Made by a program: the position numbers and the translations under genes. 64,000 nt of DNA from a virus. Its lineage: Duplodnaviria > Caudoviricetes. The notes below the pieces were generated by a model. It worked only from the letters and a program-made list of their open reading frames with translations. It was not told the DNA's origin and did no database searches. The stretch's first letter is position 1. The number at the start of each line of letters is the position of its first letter. Shown here piece by piece: positions 2,913 through 19,100 of this stretch. The DNA lies in IMG/VR virus record IMGVR_UViG_3300009093_000043, positions 1 to 64,000 of that record; one strand, 5' to 3'.

Positions 2913-3989
2913 TTACGAGGCCTTCGGGGACAAGGTGTCTCGGACGAAGTCGAGGGCCTTCGTCATCCCTTCGAGCGAGCGTTCGAACCAGAAGTCCTCG
3001 CCCTTCCCCTTGTCTCGGAAGACGATGATCTTCACCGGAGCGATCTTCCGGCCCCATTCCAAGTCGATCGTGAAGGTCGTCTCTCCGACGACTTTCCGAT
3101 CCGCGAGGCGTCGGCAGATCCGAGAGTCGGACCCAGTGAAGTCCGCACACCAGCCCGGATAGCACTGACCGATGGAGACGGATCCCCACGACGGGTTGTA
3201 GAGGTCGTCCGACGCGACCCGCTCCTTCACAAGCAAGAAGAGAGGATCCGTATTCTTGTACTCCTCCCACTCGGCTTCCCACTTCGCTTGGGCTGCGTCG
3301 CGCTCGTCGCGTCGGGCTTGCTCCTTCGGATCGACCCACTTCTCGACGAGTACGAGCTTCAACCCCTCGGGTCGGTAGGTCGTACGAGATACCACCTCCC
3401 GGATCTCCCTGTCCTCGTCTTCTTCGTCCTCGTTGAGGCAACGGGTCTCGAAGATCGTGATCTTCCCTTCGGAGATCTCCGGATCCTTCTCGTCGTCGTA
3501 CGCGTACATCTCCTCCGGGAACTCCAACTCGGCCCATCCCTTCTCCATCGGATCCGAGAAGTCGTAGAAGCGCGTCTCGTAAGGACACGCCCAGAAGCAG
3601 CCGTTCACGACGAGGAGCTTCAGCTCCGCGTTGAATGAGTACTGGACCCAGCAGAAGCCATGTCCCTTCTTTGCCGCTTCGGGAAGGAAGTCCTTCCGCT
3701 TCCCGGTGTCGAGTTCGATCACGGTCTGGCCTTGGTAGTCCGCCCCGCAGACGAGGTAGTCGTGTCCGTTCGGGTGTCCCTCGACCCAGGCGTAGGGGAA
3801 CGAGTGGTAGTTGCGATTGACGACCGCGATCGACTCTCCTGTGTCGACGCGGGTCAGCTCTCCGATCGTGTAGTTCCAGCACCCCGGCTTCGTCGCCTTC
3901 TCCGAGACCTGAAGGACGTAACGTCCGCTCGGGCTGGTGATGGGGTCTCGCTTCTTCAATTCGACGGGGGTCTCGATCGTCTCAGTCAT
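2913..3989 (-). CDS. hypothetical protein (aromatic-rich, possibly beta-propeller-like)
   Basis: Long ORF; ATG at 3989 with GGAG upstream preferred over the ORF-track start at 4067. Confidence 0.7.
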   Translation of the reverse strand: MTETIETPVELKKRDPITSPSGRYVLQVSEKATKPGCWNYTIGELTRVDTGESIAVVNRNYHSFPYAWVEGHPNGHDYLVCGADYQGQTVIELDTGKRKDFLPEAAKKGHGFCWVQYSFNAELKLLVVNGCFWACPYETRFYDFSDPMEKGWAELEFPEEMYAYDDEKDPEISEGKITIFETRCLNEDEEDEDREIREVVSRTTYRPEGLKLVLVEKWVDPKEQARRDERDAAQAKWEAEWEEYKNTDPLFLLVKERVASDDLYNPSWGSVSIGQCYPGWCADFTGSDSRICRRLADRKVVGETTFTIDLEWGRKIAPVKIIVFRDKGKGEDFWFERSLEGMTKALDFVRDTLSPKAS

Positions 3990-4007
3990 GTTCAGTCTCC
4001 GGTGGAA

Positions 4008-4063
4008 GAAATGAGAAAGCCCCGGAGCCCACGAAGAGAATCCTCGTAGGTCCAGGGCTTTCC
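4008..4063 (-). terminator. intrinsic terminator-like hairpin downstream of the tRNAs
   Basis: Minus strand GAAAGCCC...GGGCTTTC inverted repeat with inner pairing, followed by TCATTTCTT. Confidence 0.55.
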
Positions 4064-4092
4064 TCAAGAAGTTGTACAGAATCTACGTCACA

Positions 4093-4165
4093 TGCCCTCG
4101 ACTGGAATCGAACCAGCCTACACGCGGGGTTAGAAGCCGCTGTTCCGCCAATGAACTACGAGGGC
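4093..4165 (-). tRNA. tRNA with CUA anticodon (amber suppressor); CCA not encoded
   Basis: GCCCTCG TA GTTC ATTGGCG GAAC A GCGGC TTCTAAC CCCGC GTGTAG GCTGG TTCGATT CCAGT CGAGGGC A: 7-bp acceptor, 4-bp D stem, anticodon loop TT-CTA-AC (C31-C39 mismatch), TTCGA T-loop. Confidence 0.85.
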
Positions 4166-4180
4166 TCGATCGCTTTACGC

Positions 4181-4252
4181 CGCACCCGGTAGGATTTGAA
4201 CCCACGTACGTTCGCTTTAGAAGCGACTGCCTGACCGCTAGGCTACGGGTGC
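4181..4252 (-). tRNA. tRNA with CUA anticodon (amber suppressor); CCA not encoded
   Basis: GCACCCG TA GCCT AGCGGTC AGGC A GTCGC TTCTAAA GCGAA CGTAC GTGGG TTCAAAT CCTAC CGGGTGC G: full cloverleaf, loop TT-CTA-AA. Confidence 0.88.
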
Positions 4253-4258
4253 TGGGAA

Positions 4259-4570
4259 TCAACTGAAAGCCAAGGGGAGATCTCGAACTAGCTTCCGCCC
4301 GGTCGGGGCGATAGCGATAGCAGCGAGAACGTTCCCCAAGTCCGGCTCCTCGAACCGGGAGACCGGAACGCCTTCTTGGACGGCTCGATCTGCGAGCGCC
4401 GAGAGGGACGTCAGGTCCTCCGTTTCGAGGAGCACGAGGGTGTTCGAAGTCGTGTACCACTCGCGGTCGATCTCGCCGAACCCGGCTCCGAACTCTCGGA
4501 GAGCGTGGCACAGCATCGCGGCGCGGAGACCGGCGGAGAGGTCGCGACGGGTCACGAGGAAGAGCTTCAT
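4259..4570 (-). CDS. peptidyl-tRNA hydrolase 2 (Pth2)-like protein
   Basis: 103 aa from ATG 4570 (ATGA overlap with upstream stop): KLFLVTRRDLSAG..AA..CHA...W...SNTLVLL...F.EPDL....AIAIAP....V.DLPL, the phage Pth2-fold pattern. Confidence 0.8.
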   Translation of the reverse strand: MKLFLVTRRDLSAGLRAAMLCHALREFGAGFGEIDREWYTTSNTLVLLETEDLTSLSALADRAVQEGVPVSRFEEPDLGNVLAAIAIAPTGRKLVRDLPLAFS

Positions 4571-5055
4571 GTCGCGACCCCGAGCCTCGCGGCCAGTTCG
4601 TCGCGTTCCTTCGTGAGCCGGGCGAGACGGTTCACCTCCTGGTCGCGGAGGAGCTTCCGCGACCGTTCGGCTTCTCGTTCCGCCTTCTCCTGAGCTTCCC
4701 TCTTCGCGGCTTCGATCTTCGCCAGGACCTGGGACTCGGCTTCGGCGAAGATCGCCTTCGCCTCGTTGTGGTAGGCTTCCTCTTCGCCGTCTTCGCAGTA
4801 GACCCAAGGATCATCAACCCGTAGATCTGCCTCGAAGCCGTCGATGAGGATGCGGTGTTCCCGAGGCTCGTACTCCGAGCCCGTCTCGTGAAGCCCGCCC
4901 CTCGCGAGGGATCCCGCGAGTGAGAGAACGATTTGTTCGCGATCCTTCGACGAAAGGACTTCGAAGAGCGCTTCGGTCTCGTCCTCGCGGTGTCCGCTAC
5001 AGCGGTCGTAGTTCCAGCCGTTCTTCCGGAAGGTGATCAGGACGTAGCGGCTCAT
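4567..5055 (-). CDS. hypothetical protein, C-terminal coiled coil
   Basis: 162 aa ORF tightly coupled to its neighbours in the Pth2/tRNA operon. Confidence 0.7.
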   Translation of the reverse strand: MSRYVLITFRKNGWNYDRCSGHREDETEALFEVLSSKDREQIVLSLAGSLARGGLHETGSEYEPREHRILIDGFEADLRVDDPWVYCEDGEEEAYHNEAKAIFAEAESQVLAKIEAAKREAQEKAEREAERSRKLLRDQEVNRLARLTKERDELAARLGVAT

Positions 5056-5058
5056 GGC

Positions 5059-5511
5059 TCAGGCCGCCTTCCGACGCGCGGCCGATCGCTCGGCTCGTTC
5101 GGCCCGAGCCTTCACGTTCGCTTCCACGAGGTGAGCCTCGAAGGCGGCCCGCTCCTCCTCGGAGGGCTTCTCGGAGAGCCAGACCAGGACGGTCTCGGCC
5201 GACTCGGAAACGACTCCTACGGCCTGCAGAGCGTCGAGGATGCCATGGGCACTCGGGGTGTTCTCGGTCTTCCGCTCGGTCACCCAGTACCGGCGTCCGC
5301 GGAGGAAGGCGTAGGCGAGACCGGTCTCCCGGATCGACTCCTTCAGGTCCGAGTTGGTCCCCCAGAAAGAGGCCAGCTGTCGGAGGCGGGTCGGTTCGCT
5401 GACGGGCGTCGCCTTCTTGTATGCGACGCGCTCACGCGTGTTCGTCTTCTTGCTTTCGACGACGGTCGAGAGCTTCTTCTTCAGTCCCAGGATCTGTTCT
5501 TTCGTTTCCAT
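5059..5511 (-). CDS. hypothetical protein (AYxFLRGRxY motif), first gene of the Pth2/tRNA operon
   Basis: 150 aa; GGAG Shine-Dalgarno at 5524-5521; motif recalled from phage proteins often adjacent to Pth2 (unverified). Confidence 0.75.
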   Translation of the reverse strand: METKEQILGLKKKLSTVVESKKTNTRERVAYKKATPVSEPTRLRQLASFWGTNSDLKESIRETGLAYAFLRGRRYWVTERKTENTPSAHGILDALQAVGVVSESAETVLVWLSEKPSEEERAAFEAHLVEANVKARAERAERSAARRKAA

Positions 5512-5517
5512 TGCGGT

Positions 5518-5616
5518 CTACTCCATCTGAGGTTTCGGGATCGTGTTGAGACGAAACCGAGACTTCGGAGGACCGCGAGCGGAACGAATCTACAGGTGGT
5601 GGTTCACGAGCGTCAT
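5518..5616 (-). promoter_or_regulatory. leader ORF with internal amber codon, RGPP arrest motif and SD-sequestering hairpin
   Basis: ATG 5616: MTLVNHHL*(TAG 5592-5590)IRSARGPPKSRFRLNTIPKPQME*(TAG 5520-5518); GCGGTCCTCC (5576-5567) pairs with GGAG-TA-GACCGC (5524-5513). Confidence 0.7.
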
Positions 5617-5659
5617 GGTAACCCTTACGCTTCGAACCGGCAAGAGGGGTCGATCATTT

Positions 5660-5893
5660 TCAGTATCGAGAGATCGCTCGGAGAGCGGCTTCACTCGGTT
5701 CCTCGTTCGGACGGATCGGCTCGATCACTTCTCCGGCCCTAGGATCTATGGCCGTAACCTGGAAGCCTCGGGCTCCGCAAGAGAGAAGGAGAAGACGCGC
5801 GGGGTCTCGCGAGAGCCAGCTCTCTACCAGCCCCCACTTCTCGATCTTGATCGAGGAAGGGCGTCTCGGGATTCGGGGGTCTGAGTCGCCCAT
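5660..5893 (-). CDS. hypothetical protein
   Basis: 77 aa ORF filling the gap; GAGG upstream of ATG. Confidence 0.45.
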   Translation of the reverse strand: MGDSDPRIPRRPSSIKIEKWGLVESWLSRDPARLLLLSCGARGFQVTAIDPRAGEVIEPIRPNEEPSEAALRAISRY

Positions 5894-5949
5894 GACCTCA
5901 AATTTAGAGGCTTGGGGGCGTAAGACAAGCCGAATCAGAGGAGAAACCG

Positions 5950-6414
5950 ATGGATCGCGTCTTCTGGCTGTTGGCGGTGGTGGTGGGAATCCTGTTCCTG
6001 ATCGAGTACGCTCGCGTCTACCTGAAGTGGAAGAAGGAGGAGCAGTACGCCCGAGAGATGAAGAGAGACAATTCCGAGTGGGTGAAGATCGTGAAGCTTC
6101 TCGCGGAACTGAATTGGATCTCCGATTCCGGCATGAGCAAGGAGACCCCCTACACCAGACTCTGGAGGAAGGAGGAGGGAGAGATCAAGTTGGAATTGGA
6201 GGTCTCAGGTACTTGGGAGAACCCTTCGGACCTGGTTCTCTGGGCCTGGGCGATGGAGGGCGAGGAGATGTGGGACACCAGTGTCTCCGTCGACTTCGAA
6301 GACCCGACTCAGATCGTCCCATATCTCCGCGACAACCTCCAGGACCGCGTCGATCGCGTCGCGAAGGTGGTTCTGGCTACCCGGCCTTCAGGACCGGCGT
6401 CCGAAGCGGCGTAG
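5950..6414 (+). CDS. hypothetical protein with N-terminal transmembrane helix
   Basis: 154 aa; VFWLLAVVVGILFLI; GAGGAG Shine-Dalgarno. Confidence 0.7.
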   Translation: MDRVFWLLAVVVGILFLIEYARVYLKWKKEEQYAREMKRDNSEWVKIVKLLAELNWISDSGMSKETPYTRLWRKEEGEIKLELEVSGTWENPSDLVLWAWAMEGEEMWDTSVSVDFEDPTQIVPYLRDNLQDRVDRVAKVVLATRPSGPASEAA

Positions 6415-6661
6415 CGAGTCGGGAGGGAGCTTCCGCGAGGTTCTCCTCCCACTCACAACAAGTCGAACAGTCGCACGGCTCGTCTTCCCAATCGTCCCAG
6501 ATGGACACGTAGGGATCGCCCTTGACCTGCTCGCGAGTAGCGATCTTCGCTCGAATCTCGCAGTGAGGGTCCCGGTCCTTCGCTCCGTTCGCCTTGTGAG
6601 GCTTACAGAACAAGCATCCGGCCCGTCGGTTCTTAGCCCGTCTTCTTTTGTGATGTGCCAT
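6377..6661 (-). CDS. small basic/acidic Cys-containing hypothetical protein
   Basis: MAHHKRRRAKNRRAGCLFCKPHK...; GGAGG upstream of ATG 6661. Confidence 0.55.
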   Translation of the reverse strand: MAHHKRRRAKNRRAGCLFCKPHKANGAKDRDPHCEIRAKIATREQVKGDPYVSIWDDWEDEPCDCSTCCEWEENLAEAPSRLATPLRTPVLKAG

Positions 6662-6992
6662 TCGATCCTCCACGAGCCGCCGTCAGCGGCGCGCTCATGG
6701 ATTGGATCTGGATCACATCTGAAGTTCGGCTATCGGCGGGAACGTGGGCCACGGGTCTCGTTACCCCTTCTCCCTCGTCGTCCATCTCGTTGTCGAAAGC
6801 GAGGTCGAGCTTCCGAGCCTCGGAGCAAGTTCGTCGACCTGGACAGCGTCCCAGAAGCATTCTCTTCGGGCAGACCACGCATCTTCGGGCCAGCTGAGCC
6901 TCGCGCTTCAGGAGGGAAGCGACAGGGAGGATCCCCGAAACGGAGTTTCGAACCGTCACGAGCGCTGCCGAGAATTCGGGATCCAGTGACAT
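6633..6992 (-). CDS. hypothetical protein (CxxC...C...C)
   Basis: 119 aa ORF co-oriented with neighbours. Confidence 0.5.
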   Translation of the reverse strand: MSLDPEFSAALVTVRNSVSGILPVASLLKREAQLARRCVVCPKRMLLGRCPGRRTCSEARKLDLAFDNEMDDEGEGVTRPVAHVPADSRTSDVIQIQSMSAPLTAARGGSNGTSQKKTG

Positions 6993-6998
6993 TCAGCC

Positions 6999-7256
6999 CT
7001 ACTTGAGAGGGGGTCTTTTCATCCCCGGCCGCGAGGCCATACGAGTACGGCGTGATTCGAAGAGTAGCGAACGGGCCGCGTCCTTCGATTCCTTCGCGGC
7101 CTCCATCAGGGCATCCGTAGCGAGCGCGACGTCGATGCTCGCTTGGGAGGCGGTCTCCTGGATCGTGGTGCGGATCGTGTCGTCCTCGTCCCTCTTACGC
7201 ACCGTCTTGTGCGTAGCCGGACCAGTCGTTTCGATCACCACCACTCGCTTCGTCAT
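6999..7256 (-). CDS. hypothetical protein
   Basis: 85 aa; ATGA overlap with the holin-like gene. Confidence 0.6.
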   Translation of the reverse strand: MTKRVVVIETTGPATHKTVRKRDEDDTIRTTIQETASQASIDVALATDALMEAAKESKDAARSLLFESRRTRMASRPGMKRPPLK

Positions 7257-7636
7257 GGGCGTCTCCTGATGTCGTCGCCAACCTCTCTCATCGTATCCCG
7301 AACCTCGATCAGGGTTTCCTTGTTCTGGTCCAAGAGCTGGGCGACGTTCGTTAGAGCCGTTGTGGCCCCTTTCGTGAGTTCGACCAACTGGGTCTGGTAG
7401 GCCTTCGCGTCATCGATTCGAAGCTGCTGAAGACGTTCGACGGTGACGGTGTGGGACCCGACCGAGGCGAGATGAGCCGCGCGCTCGGTGGTGAGGGTAG
7501 CCAGTAGTTCCTTCCGCTCCTTCGTACCTTCCTTCCAAAGGTACCAGATCACGACCCCGAAAACAATCGTGAGGATGCCGAGCACGCCGTACGAGGCGAG
7601 ACGCTCAGCTGAAGAGGTGACTAGTTGCTCGGGCAC
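7253..7636 (-). CDS. putative holin-like protein (single TM + coiled coil, BhlA/UviB-like architecture)
   Basis: LASYGVLGILTIVFGVVIWYLWK transmembrane segment followed by an amphipathic coiled coil. Confidence 0.5.
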   Translation of the reverse strand: MPEQLVTSSAERLASYGVLGILTIVFGVVIWYLWKEGTKERKELLATLTTERAAHLASVGSHTVTVERLQQLRIDDAKAYQTQLVELTKGATTALTNVAQLLDQNKETLIEVRDTMREVGDDIRRRP

Positions 7637-16185: not shown

Positions 16186-19100
16186 CTACGGAGTGAGGAT
16201 GATGATGACTTCGCGATCGACGCCACCACCGCCAGATCCGGGAACGACCCCGGCCGAGGGCCAGTTGGGGGTCAAGATCGCCGGACGGAGGCCCGTAGGA
16301 AGCGGGTTGGGCCCGGAGTACGGGGTGACGTAGCTCGCCGGACCCAATAGGCCCAAGACCCCCGCCGCCCCTCCCGAGGCTCGAAGGAAGGTACTGAGGA
16401 CTCCGGGACCGGGTCCAGGGAACGGCCCGGAGGCGGTACCCGAGCCCGTGTAACCGAAGTTCTCCGAGTAGCTCGCTCCGTCGATCCCCAACTCTCGGAG
16501 ACCGGTTCCGTTTCCGGGACCGTCGCAGAAGGACGAGATCTTCCCCTCGGACCCTCCGTCGTCCAGTTGGAAGAAGTCCATCTGTTCGTAGAGGACGTTG
16601 GGGTCGTCGTTGAACTGACGGACGAGGTACTGATCTCGAAGGAAGTAGTTCGGGTCGACCGGGCCCGCGGGCGGGAAGGCCGGAGTCGGTCCGCCGTCGC
16701 CGGAGACCGTCGTCACCGTCGCCTCTCCCACCTGGCTCATAGGAACGGGAGGCGTCCCCTCGTTCAGGACAGTCTGGGACTCTTGAAGCGGTTGAGACTC
16801 CAGGTACGTGTTCGTGATCGGCTTCGAGACGGCGAAGACGATCGTCACGGGGAACCCGGCCGAGGGCAGGGCGTTCGAGAGAGTGATCTCTTGGCTGTCG
16901 GAGTTGAAGCGCCAGGTCGCGGGCGATAGTGGGACTCCCTCGACGATGACCTGGAAGACGCGGTTCGCGAAGATGTGGGCGGGTCGGATCGAAACGCGGG
17001 TCGTGGTGAGAGAGGCGACGACAACCTGCTCAGGCGTGAAGTCCTTCAGGTATTCACCGCTGGAGATCACGTTCCACTGGTTGAGCACCATCTTCTGAGG
17101 CGCTCGGTAGTCGATCGACGTGTGGGTGAAGACGCGGTACCGGACCTCATTCCAGAGCTGGAGAGAGGACGCCGCGGGGTTCAGCTTCCCGAAGAAGACA
17201 CTTCCGAAGCGAGTGTCGCTCGTGGAGCGAGGGAGACGCGCGTATTCGACGCGAGCCCAGGCGGCCGTCGGATCGAGGGACTGAGTCGCGAAGTCTCCAG
17301 TGTACCCGGAGGGTGGGTTGAGATCGGGGCGAAGGAAGATCGCGCCGAACGTCGGATCGACGAAGAGGCGAACCCAGCACTCACTCGTCCAGTCCATCTC
17401 GACGATCACGGAGGACGGATCGGAGTTCGGAACGGAGAGACCGTCGGTTCGGGGGATCTCCCAGTTGTCGAGGTCGCCGAAGTCGCCGCCCTTCCAGATC
17501 CCGAAGGTCCGGTGAAGGTTCGAGACCCCCACGATGTTCTCGAAGAGCGAGAGGCTGAAGAGCGAGGCCTCGAAGGACGCGCCGCTCTCCAAGTCGAGGT
17601 AGCCGAACGAGACGCCGTCCGAGGGGGCGATGAAGACGGGGAACGAGGCGAAGGGAGCCGTTCCCAGCAGGATGTCGTTCTCGTAGAGGCTGACGAGGTT
17701 CCCCGAGGGTGAGACGTTCAGTCGGTACGTCCTCGGGACGCCGTCGCTCCAGTTCGAGCCTACGAGGAGCGCGGCTCCCAGGGTCGAGGGGTCGCATAGG
17801 AGGATCGAGTCCGGACCCGAGAAGGCGACACCGATCTGACGCCCGCCGACGTCCGCGACGAACATGAGGCCGATGAAGTTCGCCCCCGAGCCCGAGACCA
17901 CGAACGAATCGACCGAAAGACGAAACTCGACCGTTCGATCTGTCGTCGTGAGAACCGGGAGAGACTTCGAGACGAGCCAGTCGGTCCCCGCGCCCGCGCC
18001 TGAAATCAGCGTTTCCGGACCGTTCGCGAACGTCACGGGCGTTCCGAAGTCGACCCATCCTTGAGAGGTGTAGGTGGTCGCGCCGACGAGGGAGATCGTA
18101 GCCTGGGGGAAGATCCTCTTCCCAGACCCGCCGTTGTTCTGGAAGAGGAGGTTACCCAACCGCGCTTCGCGGTGAGTGTCCTTCATGGAGATCGCGGCGC
18201 CGCCCGCTCCCGATGTATCTCTCGACAGCGAGAGGTGAGCGTCGAGAGCTACGACACGTCGACCGTCGAGGAACGGATCAATCAGGCCGTAGCCGTACTG
18301 AGTGTCGAGGGAAGCCTCGCCCGGAGTCCCGGTGAGTCGAAGGACACCCGAGACATTCGCCGAATCTCCGTACGGAGTCGTGAGGAACCACTCAGCGTCT
18401 TCCGGGTTCCCGGTCATCGTCGTGTCGACGACGGTTCCGCGAGAGAAGAGGGTCCCGCCGTCTGGCGTCGAGAGGTAGCGGACGAAGTCCCAGAGGGTCG
18501 TGTTCGTCGCCTTTCGGGAGAACGAGCCCCAGAGGTAGCGACCCGAGCCCATCGGGAGAACGTCGGGGCCGAGGTATGCGGGGGAGGAAAGGATCGGCCC
18601 GCCGATCACGGTGACGAGAGAACCTCCGGTGGCTCCGCCGAAGAGGAGCTGGACCGAGTCGTTCTTCGTGTCGGCGTAGAGGCGCCATGTGCACAGGCCG
18701 GCGTCCCACTCGGTCTCGAAGACGAGGTCCGCGAACTTGTTCCCGAAGAGGGCCGGATTCTCGGGGAAGCCCGGACCATCCACGACGATCGTGACAAGGT
18801 TCCGGGAGCTGTCGATGAAGACCTGGTCGACGGTGTAGACGCCCGTCTGGTTGCCGACGAGGATCTGGAATCGATTCCCCGCTGTGAGGAGCCTCGGGGC
18901 CGAGTCGAGCGGGACGGTGACGACGGTCGCGCTGAGGATCGTTCCCGGAGCCTTCGGGCCGACGATCCAAGAGGATACGTCACGAATCTCGCCCGGGCGC
19001 GCGAGGAGACCGATGTGCTTCAGTCCGTTCACGACGAGCGCGCCCGCGAGGTAGAGGCGGTGATCGTTGTGGAAGCCGAAGCCGACGCCAGTGAAGACGC

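Follow-up and report, generated by a model that had tools for sequence, protein, structure and literature searches.

A candidate translational sensor of amber read-through in the leader of a phage operon encoding a peptidyl-tRNA hydrolase-like protein

Introduction

Why would a phage leader carry the codons of a ribosome-arrest motif, Arg-Gly-Pro-Pro (RGPP), behind an in-frame amber stop codon? The question is raised by a locus on the minus strand of the IMG/VR virus record IMGVR_UViG_3300009093_000043 (Duplodnaviria; Caudoviricetes), where such a leader precedes a gene for a 150-amino acid (aa) protein. The window analyzed here is a stretch of 64,000 nucleotides, positions 1 to 64,000 of this 97.6-kb fragment, which has 62% G+C and a CheckV completeness of 18%. 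By their labels, the DNA runs that contain the record are metagenomes from rhizosphere and peat; the listed runs include none of RNA. Amber-suppressor tRNAs for which we know of no target are borne by many phages with the standard genetic code, and two tRNA genes of this type close the gene string behind the leader. From sequence comparison, we give a probability of roughly 0.6 to the reading that the leader is a translational UAG read-through sensor that switches on the 150-aa protein and a hydrolase resembling peptidyl-tRNA hydrolase 2 (PTH2).

Results

Organization of the leader and proposed mechanism

The leader was re-read on the minus strand, and all coordinates given for it in the initial annotation proved exact. 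It comprises an upstream open reading frame (uORF), a spacer, the RGPP codons and a hairpin that includes the Shine-Dalgarno sequence (SD) of the 150-aa gene:

5630-5624, minus strand: GCGTAAG gene-start signal, 7 nt upstream of the leader ATG.
5590-5616, minus strand: leader uORF encoding MTLVNHHL, from the ATG at 5616 to the proposed gating TAG at 5592-5590; a homologous ATG...TAG mini-ORF is present in 11/11 loci.
5578-5589, minus strand: spacer of four codons (ATT CGT TCC GCT) without a canonical start; variants at 5578 and 5581 are synonymous third-position changes.
5566-5577, minus strand: RGPP codons CGC GGT CCT CCG, candidate arrest site and left arm of the hairpin (anti-SD and anti-start).
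5531-5558, minus strand: inner stem-loop predicted by folding, GGTTTCG (5558-5552) with CGAAACC (5537-5531); an inner stem is found in every lineage, with differing sequence.
5509-5524, minus strand: initiation region of the 150-aa gene, right arm of the predicted hairpin, with the SD GGAG (5524-5521), a second, non-conserved TAG (5520-5518), GACCGC (5518-5513) and the ATG (5511-5509).
5059-5511, minus strand: open reading frame (ORF) of the 150-aa protein, predicted to be all-helical; the first gene proposed to be regulated.

The RGPP codons of the window are located 66 nt upstream of the main ATG and are co-oriented with the 150-aa gene. After the first TAG the leader frame continues as IRSARGPPKSRFRLNTIPKPQME to the second TAG at 5520-5518, followed by ACC GCA and the ATG at 5511. 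Since no ATG, GTG or TTG occurs between the first TAG and RGPP, the motif is translatable solely via the TAG. The chain at the motif would then have 15-19 residues, for instance MTLVNHHL-X-IRSARGPP, with no signal peptide or membrane segment.

We infer that the uORF is translated, that its UAG is read through, that RGPP arrests the ribosome in this short context and that the direction of control is on. A ribosome would initiate at the leader ATG (5616), which is marked by the phage's own gene-start signal. If a release factor wins at the UAG (5592-5590), the ribosome would leave and the hairpin would be closed, with the RGPP codons lying on the SD and start. If a phage tRNA(CUA) decodes the UAG, four further codons would be translated before arrest on Arg-Gly-Pro-Pro. 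Arrest would place the ribosome on the left hairpin arm, with 25-40 nt separating it from the initiation region; the SD and AUG would thereby be freed and the 150-aa protein synthesized. Translational coupling would then probably yield a 162-aa protein and the PTH2-like protein, as their genes abut or overlap. As only a decoded UAG would release the start region, we propose that the output tracks the level of working suppressor tRNA.

In Markov-1 simulations of the 97.6-kb record, the pattern start-(2-12 codons)-TAG-(1-8 codons)-R[GA]PP is expected 0.33 times, and it was observed once. No further copies of the element were detected in the record, in which CGCGGTCCTCC was found once. The case for a sensor rests on conservation in relatives, because neither the pattern nor the pairing goes beyond chance within the single record.

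Conservation of the leader in related loci

The set of leaders comprises 11 loci with 10 distinct sequences: the window, L001, L002, L003, L005, L127, L129, L130, L131, L132 and L133. Protein and profile scans yielded L001 from IMG/VR and L002-L005 from metagenomes, and L127 and L129-L133 (contigs of 160-298 kb for L129-L133) were recovered with an alignment of the better-conserved PTH2-like protein. The counts leave out L004, whose leader is the same as that of L005, as well as L006, L134, L135 and duplicate contigs (L128, L136-L140). PTH2-like genes are present in L134 and L135, with no CUA tRNA in the locus and no adjoining 150-aa homologue seen. The 150-aa proteins of the relatives are 37-59% identical to that of the window. 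A scan of genome contigs gave L006 as the single match (29% identical over 70 residues). With a broader 150-aa protein profile no additional viral contigs were obtained, and tblastn and blastn searches against GenBank phages returned no match. Viral contigs were also scanned for the anti-SD block pattern. Among the matches listed, the extended motif was found beyond L001-L005 only in L050, where it occurs without a TAG and was taken as chance.

All 11 leaders have the form ATG-(3-8 codons)-TAG, with uORFs of 4-9 codons, and in each of them the main start follows the RGPP codons at a distance of 60-75 nt. TAG and RGPP are in one frame in nine of them, which read as follows (# = TAG):

Window: MTLVNHHL#IRSA-RGPP
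L001, L002 and L003: MQPHLT#VRS-RGPP
L005: MNSHHT#VCFA-RGPP
L127: MISHHT#VNLP-RGPP
L129: MTWT#LHLP-RGPP
L131: MTWT#LPLP-RGPP
L133: MIWT#LHLSLA-RGPP

The initial annotation had made its reading depend on conservation of the TAG and RGPP frame in homologous loci. This frame was kept, by triplet reading in 9/11 leaders and at +1 after TAGA in the other 2/11. The spacers of 9, 12 or 18 nt place RGPP 4 codons from the TAG in the window and 3-6 codons from it in the other eight in-frame loci, and the peptides that they encode differ (IRSA, VRS, VCFA, VNLP, LHLP, LPLP, LHLSLA). Indels from the uORF to RGPP are all multiples of three, and the TAG is invariant although the flanking codons change. The RGPP codons are CGC/CGT, GGT/GGA/GGC, CCT/CCC and CCG/CCA/CCC/CCT across loci; thus all four third positions vary and none of the eight first and second positions does, a distribution with a chance of 1 in 495 if four sites varied at random. 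Differences between close relatives within the stretch from uORF to RGPP fall on third positions in 7/8 cases (binomial P about 0.003). They include three synonymous third-position differences out of three between L001 and L002, two synonymous third-position and one second-position difference between L129 and L131, and two synonymous third-position differences out of two (5578, 5581) between the window and the strains in runs X2/X3. The strain contigs are DNA, with a depth of 2-5 outside run X1, and isolated differences may be errors. The synonymous variation of the RGPP codons and the indels in multiples of three support the core of the read-through sensor first proposed in the initial annotation.

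These patterns also bear on the possibility that the hairpin is a plain translational operator, such as a thermosensor or a protein-binding site, and that uORF, TAG and RGPP never form one translated unit. An element acting through RNA alone fails to explain an invariant TAG amid changing codons, indels in multiples of three and the excess of third-position differences between close pairs. It accounts neither for the constancy of CG-GG, whose pairing partners vary by locus, nor for the gene-start signal at the uORF ATG or the tRNA(CUA) that accompanies the element in 10/11 loci.

Downstream of RGPP nothing is conserved: the tails are unrelated, and the frame relative to the main ORF is 0, 1 or 2. 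A 1-nt deletion at 5533, after RGPP, was observed in X2/X3 (at low depth, but in two runs). The lack of conservation past RGPP fits RGPP as the functional end of the leader. The initial annotation had stressed that the leader, both TAGs and the 150-aa gene lie in one frame. This link is incidental because the frame varies and the deletion in X2/X3 follows RGPP; the second TAG, for its part, is present in only 2/10 distinct leader sequences (window, L005). The same frame shared by leader, both TAGs and main ORF in the window and L005 could suggest that double read-through yields the 150-aa protein with an N-terminal extension. Such an isoform is highly improbable given that frame 0 is found in 3/11 loci only and frame 1 or 2 in eight, that the peptides after RGPP are unrelated, and that the deletion at 5533 breaks the frame. 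In addition, 13/14 homologues have 139-150 aa and all 14 have one common N-terminus, though gene callers cut at TAG anyway. We rejected the extended isoform on the frame variation and the X2/X3 deletion.

Start signal of the uORF

The heptamer GCGTAAG is present in 24 copies in the 97.6-kb record, versus 4.9 +/- 2.7 expected, and is five-fold over-represented. An ATG follows 4-13 nt after 15 of the 24 copies (background 7.3%). Of these 15 ATGs, 14 begin ORFs of 58-723 codons, including many starts of the record's long ORFs; the fifteenth is the leader ATG. The leader starts like a genuine gene of the phage, as GCGTAAG-N7-ATG is arranged as at the 14 gene starts. GCGTAAG may serve in ribosome binding, or as a promoter element for mRNA that is leaderless or has a short leader. 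In many genes it precedes the ATG by 6-9 nt, for example at 5630, 45757, 85128, 87367 and 93744 on the minus strand of the record.

The consensus of the -10 promoter box is TANNNT. If the TAG were part of such a box, the transcript would start later and lack the uORF. The window (TAGATT) and L001-L005 (TAGGTT) match this consensus, but the other loci read TAGGTA, TAGCTC, TAGCTG or TAGATG and have lost the sixth T. A sigma-70 scan of 4000-7500 gave no promoter-like site, and a -10 box would leave the conservation of the frame unexplained. This reading of the TAG, which we consider very improbable, was rejected because TANNNT is not conserved.

RNA structure of the leader

In the minimum-energy fold of 5660-5490 (RNAfold), GCGGUCCUCC is paired with GGAG..GACCGC, and the inner stem is formed as well. 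The fold has an energy of -54.4 kcal/mol with z = -2.96, and 2/200 shuffles were equally stable. Folded singly, the leaders share a common architecture in which CGYGG pairs with the start region and CCUCC with GGAG, followed by the lineage-specific inner stem. The z values range from -1.6 to -3.55 in 10/11 leaders, the exception being L132 (+0.25). The long SD-sequestering hairpin with the RGPP codons as its anti-SD arm, as described in the initial annotation, was thereby recovered in all 11 loci. MAFFT alignment misplaces the SD of the window and of L005, and the inner stems are not alignable. The initiation region (-14..+3) has a pairing probability of 0.52-0.76 in 11/11 loci, and the 12 RGPP nucleotides account for 0.45-0.69; in the window the RGPP codons contribute 0.60 to a mean of 0.75.

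We masked the footprint of a ribosome on these folds. A ribosome with the UAG in its A site leaves a pairing of 0.47-0.76, and one arrested with its P site on the first Pro codon reduces it to 0.27-0.55 in 11/11 loci, with 25-40 nt left to the initiation region. The initial annotation had also offered a ribosome lingering at the UAG as a trigger, and in this model such a ribosome barely opens the start region.

The view that the hairpin is an operator without a translated leader gains from the structure, since the CGYGGNCCUCC block is required for pairing with the SD and start, the variable positions are unpaired or wobble-tolerant, the pairing is no outlier and the pattern is close to its chance expectation in the record. 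Weighed with the codon-level evidence above, an RNA-only element appears distinctly unlikely.

A permissive Rfam cmscan of 3900-6000 returned only two tRNAs above the gathering score and nothing in 5512-5660; the leader matched no T-box or other curated RNA family. It does not resemble a transcription attenuator of the trp or his type either, as no terminator-like site was found on the minus strand in 5500-5660 and no U-run is seen by eye after the hairpin.

Suppressor tRNAs and genes downstream of the leader

The strongest context for the leader, which the initial annotation had not used, is the pair of tRNA(CUA) genes that closes the gene string of the window. The genes behind the 150-aa gene are:

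4567-5055, minus strand: 162-aa protein; a homologous ORF is in the same position in L003.
4259-4570, minus strand: PTH2-like protein of 103 aa, whose ATG overlaps the stop of the preceding gene; Pfam PF01981 with E 2.8e-4, below cut-off.
4181-4252, minus strand: tRNA of amber-suppressor type (anticodon CUA), 6 nt past the PTH2-like stop; ARAGORN, and 59.1 bits with Rfam tRNA.
4093-4165, minus strand: second, divergent tRNA with anticodon CUA; ARAGORN, and 46.4 bits with Rfam tRNA.

The order is 150-aa gene, 3-nt gap, 162-aa gene, ATGA overlap, PTH2-like gene, 6 nt, tRNA(CUA), 15 nt and second tRNA(CUA). Among the 11 loci fetched, CUA is found in the anticodon loop of a tRNA in 10, with L130 as the exception. 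The loop has 7 nt in eight loci and 8 nt in L005 and L132. In the window, L001-L005, L127, L132 and L133, the tRNA(CUA) follows the PTH2-like gene on the same strand. The tandem tRNA(CUA) genes at 4093-4252 differ throughout, including the acceptor stem and discriminator, and may carry different amino acids; in the second, a C-C mismatch closes the anticodon stem. In L005 (4129-4527), the PTH2-like ORF has no stop before the tRNA and reads through it to a TGA at 4525-4527, so that tRNA processing would yield a message without a stop codon.

The 150-aa protein has 14 homologues of 106-150 aa (13/14 at 139-150 aa) with a common start, and its family includes 245 cluster representatives at E <= 1e-3. 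Its AlphaFold2 model is helical (predicted local distance difference test, pLDDT, 91.2), with no match to the PDB at E <= 0.001, and neither Pfam nor PHROG searches assigned the protein to a family. In L127 and L129 the next gene after the 150-aa gene is the PTH2-like gene. The PTH2-like orthologue of L005 scores 30.5 bits against the PF01981 cut-off of 23, i.e. above it. Across four loci the PTH2-like protein is 73-81% identical, to be compared with 55-59% for the 150-aa protein; judged by sequence, the most conserved product of the module is the peptidyl-tRNA hydrolase-like gene. In jumbo phages, PTH2 has been discussed as a ribosome-rescue factor, and suppressors are not mentioned in the portion of that paper covered here (PMC7824862).

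The conservation of the PTH2-like gene, and a transfer-messenger RNA (tmRNA) gene beside the module in L130, would suit a variant in which the sensor is the same and the output is opposite or different: read-through followed by RGPP arrest would lower the expression of the operon or merely time it. This could occur through ribosome collisions and mRNA cleavage, or through a PTH2-like product that releases the arrested chain in a negative feedback. The sequence evidence fixes the input, namely UAG decoding followed by RGPP, and not the sign of the output. Nevertheless, the RGPP codons mask the SD and start in 11/11 loci and the footprint of the arrested ribosome lowers this pairing in all of them, the gap of 25-40 nt has space for a second ribosome, and the layout is that of stall-activated secM-secA and ermC. 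An inverted or timing output is, in our estimate, unlikely.

Genetic code of the phage

The large ORFs of the record (668-3635 codons) are open under the standard code, and translating TAG as Gln merely fuses or extends neighbours in this 18%-complete fragment. No release-factor (RF-1) domain was found in the 97.6-kb record. L002 has a short release-factor-like ORF after its tRNA(CUA) (4892-5548), with an RF-1 domain (E 3e-33) and the end of a PCRF domain; it is missing from L003 despite a near-identical leader. The codon-reading loop of this ORF is PAN, against PxT in RF1. Several genes end at TAG with an open frame beyond, at 1922-1924 and 16186-16188 in the window and at 77933-77935 in the whole record (G000). 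Examples are ORFs of 191, 311 and 1725 aa and one at 77933-78253 that abuts the following ORF. Such ORFs could be lengthened or joined if the amber codon were suppressed. The phage's own proteins contain no in-frame R[GA]PP and one A[GA]PP in 29,184 codons, which is uninformative on RGPP avoidance.

Two loci with RGPP in the +1 frame

RGPP is located 25 and 10 nt past the TAG in L130 and L132, respectively (1+24 and 1+9), i.e. in the +1 frame, and both loci have TAGA. The two distances differ by 15 nt, a multiple of three. The sites concerned are:

L132, 3505-3545 and 4310-4385.
L130, 2100-2153.

The L132 genome is complete (159.9 kb) and has three tRNAs only; one of them immediately follows the PTH2-like gene, and UCUA lies in its anticodon loop of 8 nt. 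How the codon is read does not follow from loop size alone, because L005 likewise has an 8-nt loop yet needs triplet reading. L130 has a tRNA called as Arg(CCU) and a tmRNA in the locus, and no CUA tRNA was found there or in the scanned parts of its tRNA array (6/30 loci). The tmRNA gene (L130, 5145-5527; tag ANDNSYAQAIAA) lies ~0.8 kb behind the PTH2-like gene and is another ribosome-rescue function by the module. L130 and L132 may be decayed copies, or a clade with +1 or four-base decoding.

We also considered that the module is a self-reinforcing genetic-code switch, with the sensor of L130 and L132 retuned to a +1 or four-base UAGA reading. The tRNAs of the window end the gated gene string, so that read-through would lead to translation of the operon, protection of the transcript and more tRNA(CUA). 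The infected cell would then be committed to UAG read-through. This extension of the sensor is speculative and rather doubtful.

Discussion

Several observations weigh against a read-through sensor. The lineages compared are related, and the independent events are few (at least 2 spacer indels, 8 substitutions). By triplet reading, RGPP is out of frame in L130 and L132. Pairing is weak evidence because CCUCC always pairs with a nearby GGAG, so that it is not independent of the motif; the value of 0.75 in the window ranks 6/36 among SD-bearing genes in this G+C-rich record, whose median is 0.61. A constraint on the RNA alone could partly explain the codon pattern, since the variable third positions of RGPP are unpaired or wobble-tolerant. 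SD-like sequence ahead of the uORFs is weak or absent in several loci, as read by eye. We know of no precedent in this motif class for arrest with a chain of 15-19 residues and no signal peptide. Finally, the tRNA(CUA) of L129 and L131 is on the opposite strand, ~1.1-1.3 kb further. Co-transcription of tRNA(CUA) with the leader is thus not general, and the constant output of the leader would be the 150-aa and PTH2-like proteins, not the tRNA.

If the sensor reading is true, phage amber-suppressor tRNAs would have a defined target, and the leader would represent a naturally occurring sensor for the state of the genetic code, with a bearing on how recoding phages sense or time the code switch. 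RGPP arrest peptides would be extended to phages, to very short chains, and to competition between tRNA and release factor as the input. The element, of ~120 nt, should be readily portable to reporter assays, and the same logic has already been built by hand in synthetic biology with TAG in leader peptides, so that a naturally occurring form would have practical value as well.

Comparison with known systems

Among the known systems closest to the leader are the RAPP/RGPP arrest peptides (ApdA, ApdP, ApcA and seven Streptomyces lividans uORFs), which likewise have a small upstream ORF with an Arg-Gly/Ala-Pro-Pro core and the regulated gene directly downstream on the same strand (PMC12992588, PMC10951233, PMC7897499, PMC10987492). 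Of the RAPP-like arrest cores, RGPP is described as the strongest; it reportedly tolerates different contexts on its N-terminal side, is not relieved by EF-P and is the most avoided tetrapeptide in many phyla. A signal peptide or membrane segment is typical of these proteins and not universal, 1/7 tested S. lividans proteins having neither (PMC12992588). The present leader differs in that an in-frame UAG interrupts the ORF before the motif, which would be translated only on read-through. It also differs in being carried by a phage and in adjoining a PTH2-like module by suppressor tRNAs, not protein-localisation genes. No pulling force could release the arrest here, because the chain has 15-19 residues and lacks a signal peptide or membrane segment.

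In SecM-secA and ErmCL-ermC, a hairpin sequestering an SD is opened when a ribosome stalls; SecM is also the subject of PMC10951299. The present leader similarly has its candidate stall site on the hairpin arm masking the initiation region, and a second ribosome fits in silico. The trigger is secretion activity or an antibiotic in those systems, whereas it would be stop-codon decoding here, and here the arrest codons are themselves the anti-SD. The prfB gene of RF2 is autoregulated via an in-frame UGA and a +1 frameshift; it encodes one protein and senses the release factor that it encodes. An early in-frame stop serves there as a sensor of termination efficiency and would do so here, and L130 and L132 would even need a +1 shift at the stop. 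In contrast to prfB, the competitor would here be a suppressor tRNA, and an arrest peptide and hairpin would control separate genes.

Stop-codon-recoded phages carry code-change modules of suppressor tRNA, aminoacyl-tRNA synthetase and release factor (10.1101/2021.08.26.457843), and theta ribozymes adjoin suppressor tRNAs (PMC10879173). The portions of these papers covered here describe no leader sensor, and 'hydrolase' occurs 0 times in the portion of the preprint covered (10.1101/2021.08.26.457843, PMC10879173). Both those modules and the present locus group phage tRNA(CUA) genes with translation-related genes, and the question of what triggers the switch is common to both. They differ in that the large genes of the present phage are open under the standard code, with no release-factor domain in the 97.6-kb fragment. 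No natural amber-gated leader was described in the literature searched, outside which lie supplementary tables such as Table S2 of the recoding preprint.

In the C-terminal tail of eukaryotic AMD1, ribosomes that have passed the stop codon pause downstream, so that arrest is likewise reached solely by read-through ribosomes; there, read-through is spontaneous and limits the output of the same ORF, with no dedicated suppressor tRNA and no SD unmasking (PMC13025110). The synthetic 'Uaa transcriptional switch' places TAG in trp or tna leader peptides and differs in being engineered and transcriptional, via an unmasked rut site, with no arrest motif or SD hairpin (PMC6412442). The present element would be its natural counterpart. 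The known parts of the element are the RGPP arrest core and the SD-masking hairpin; a natural in-frame stop gate of the proposed kind, which the phage's own suppressor tRNA would read, was not found in the literature searched.

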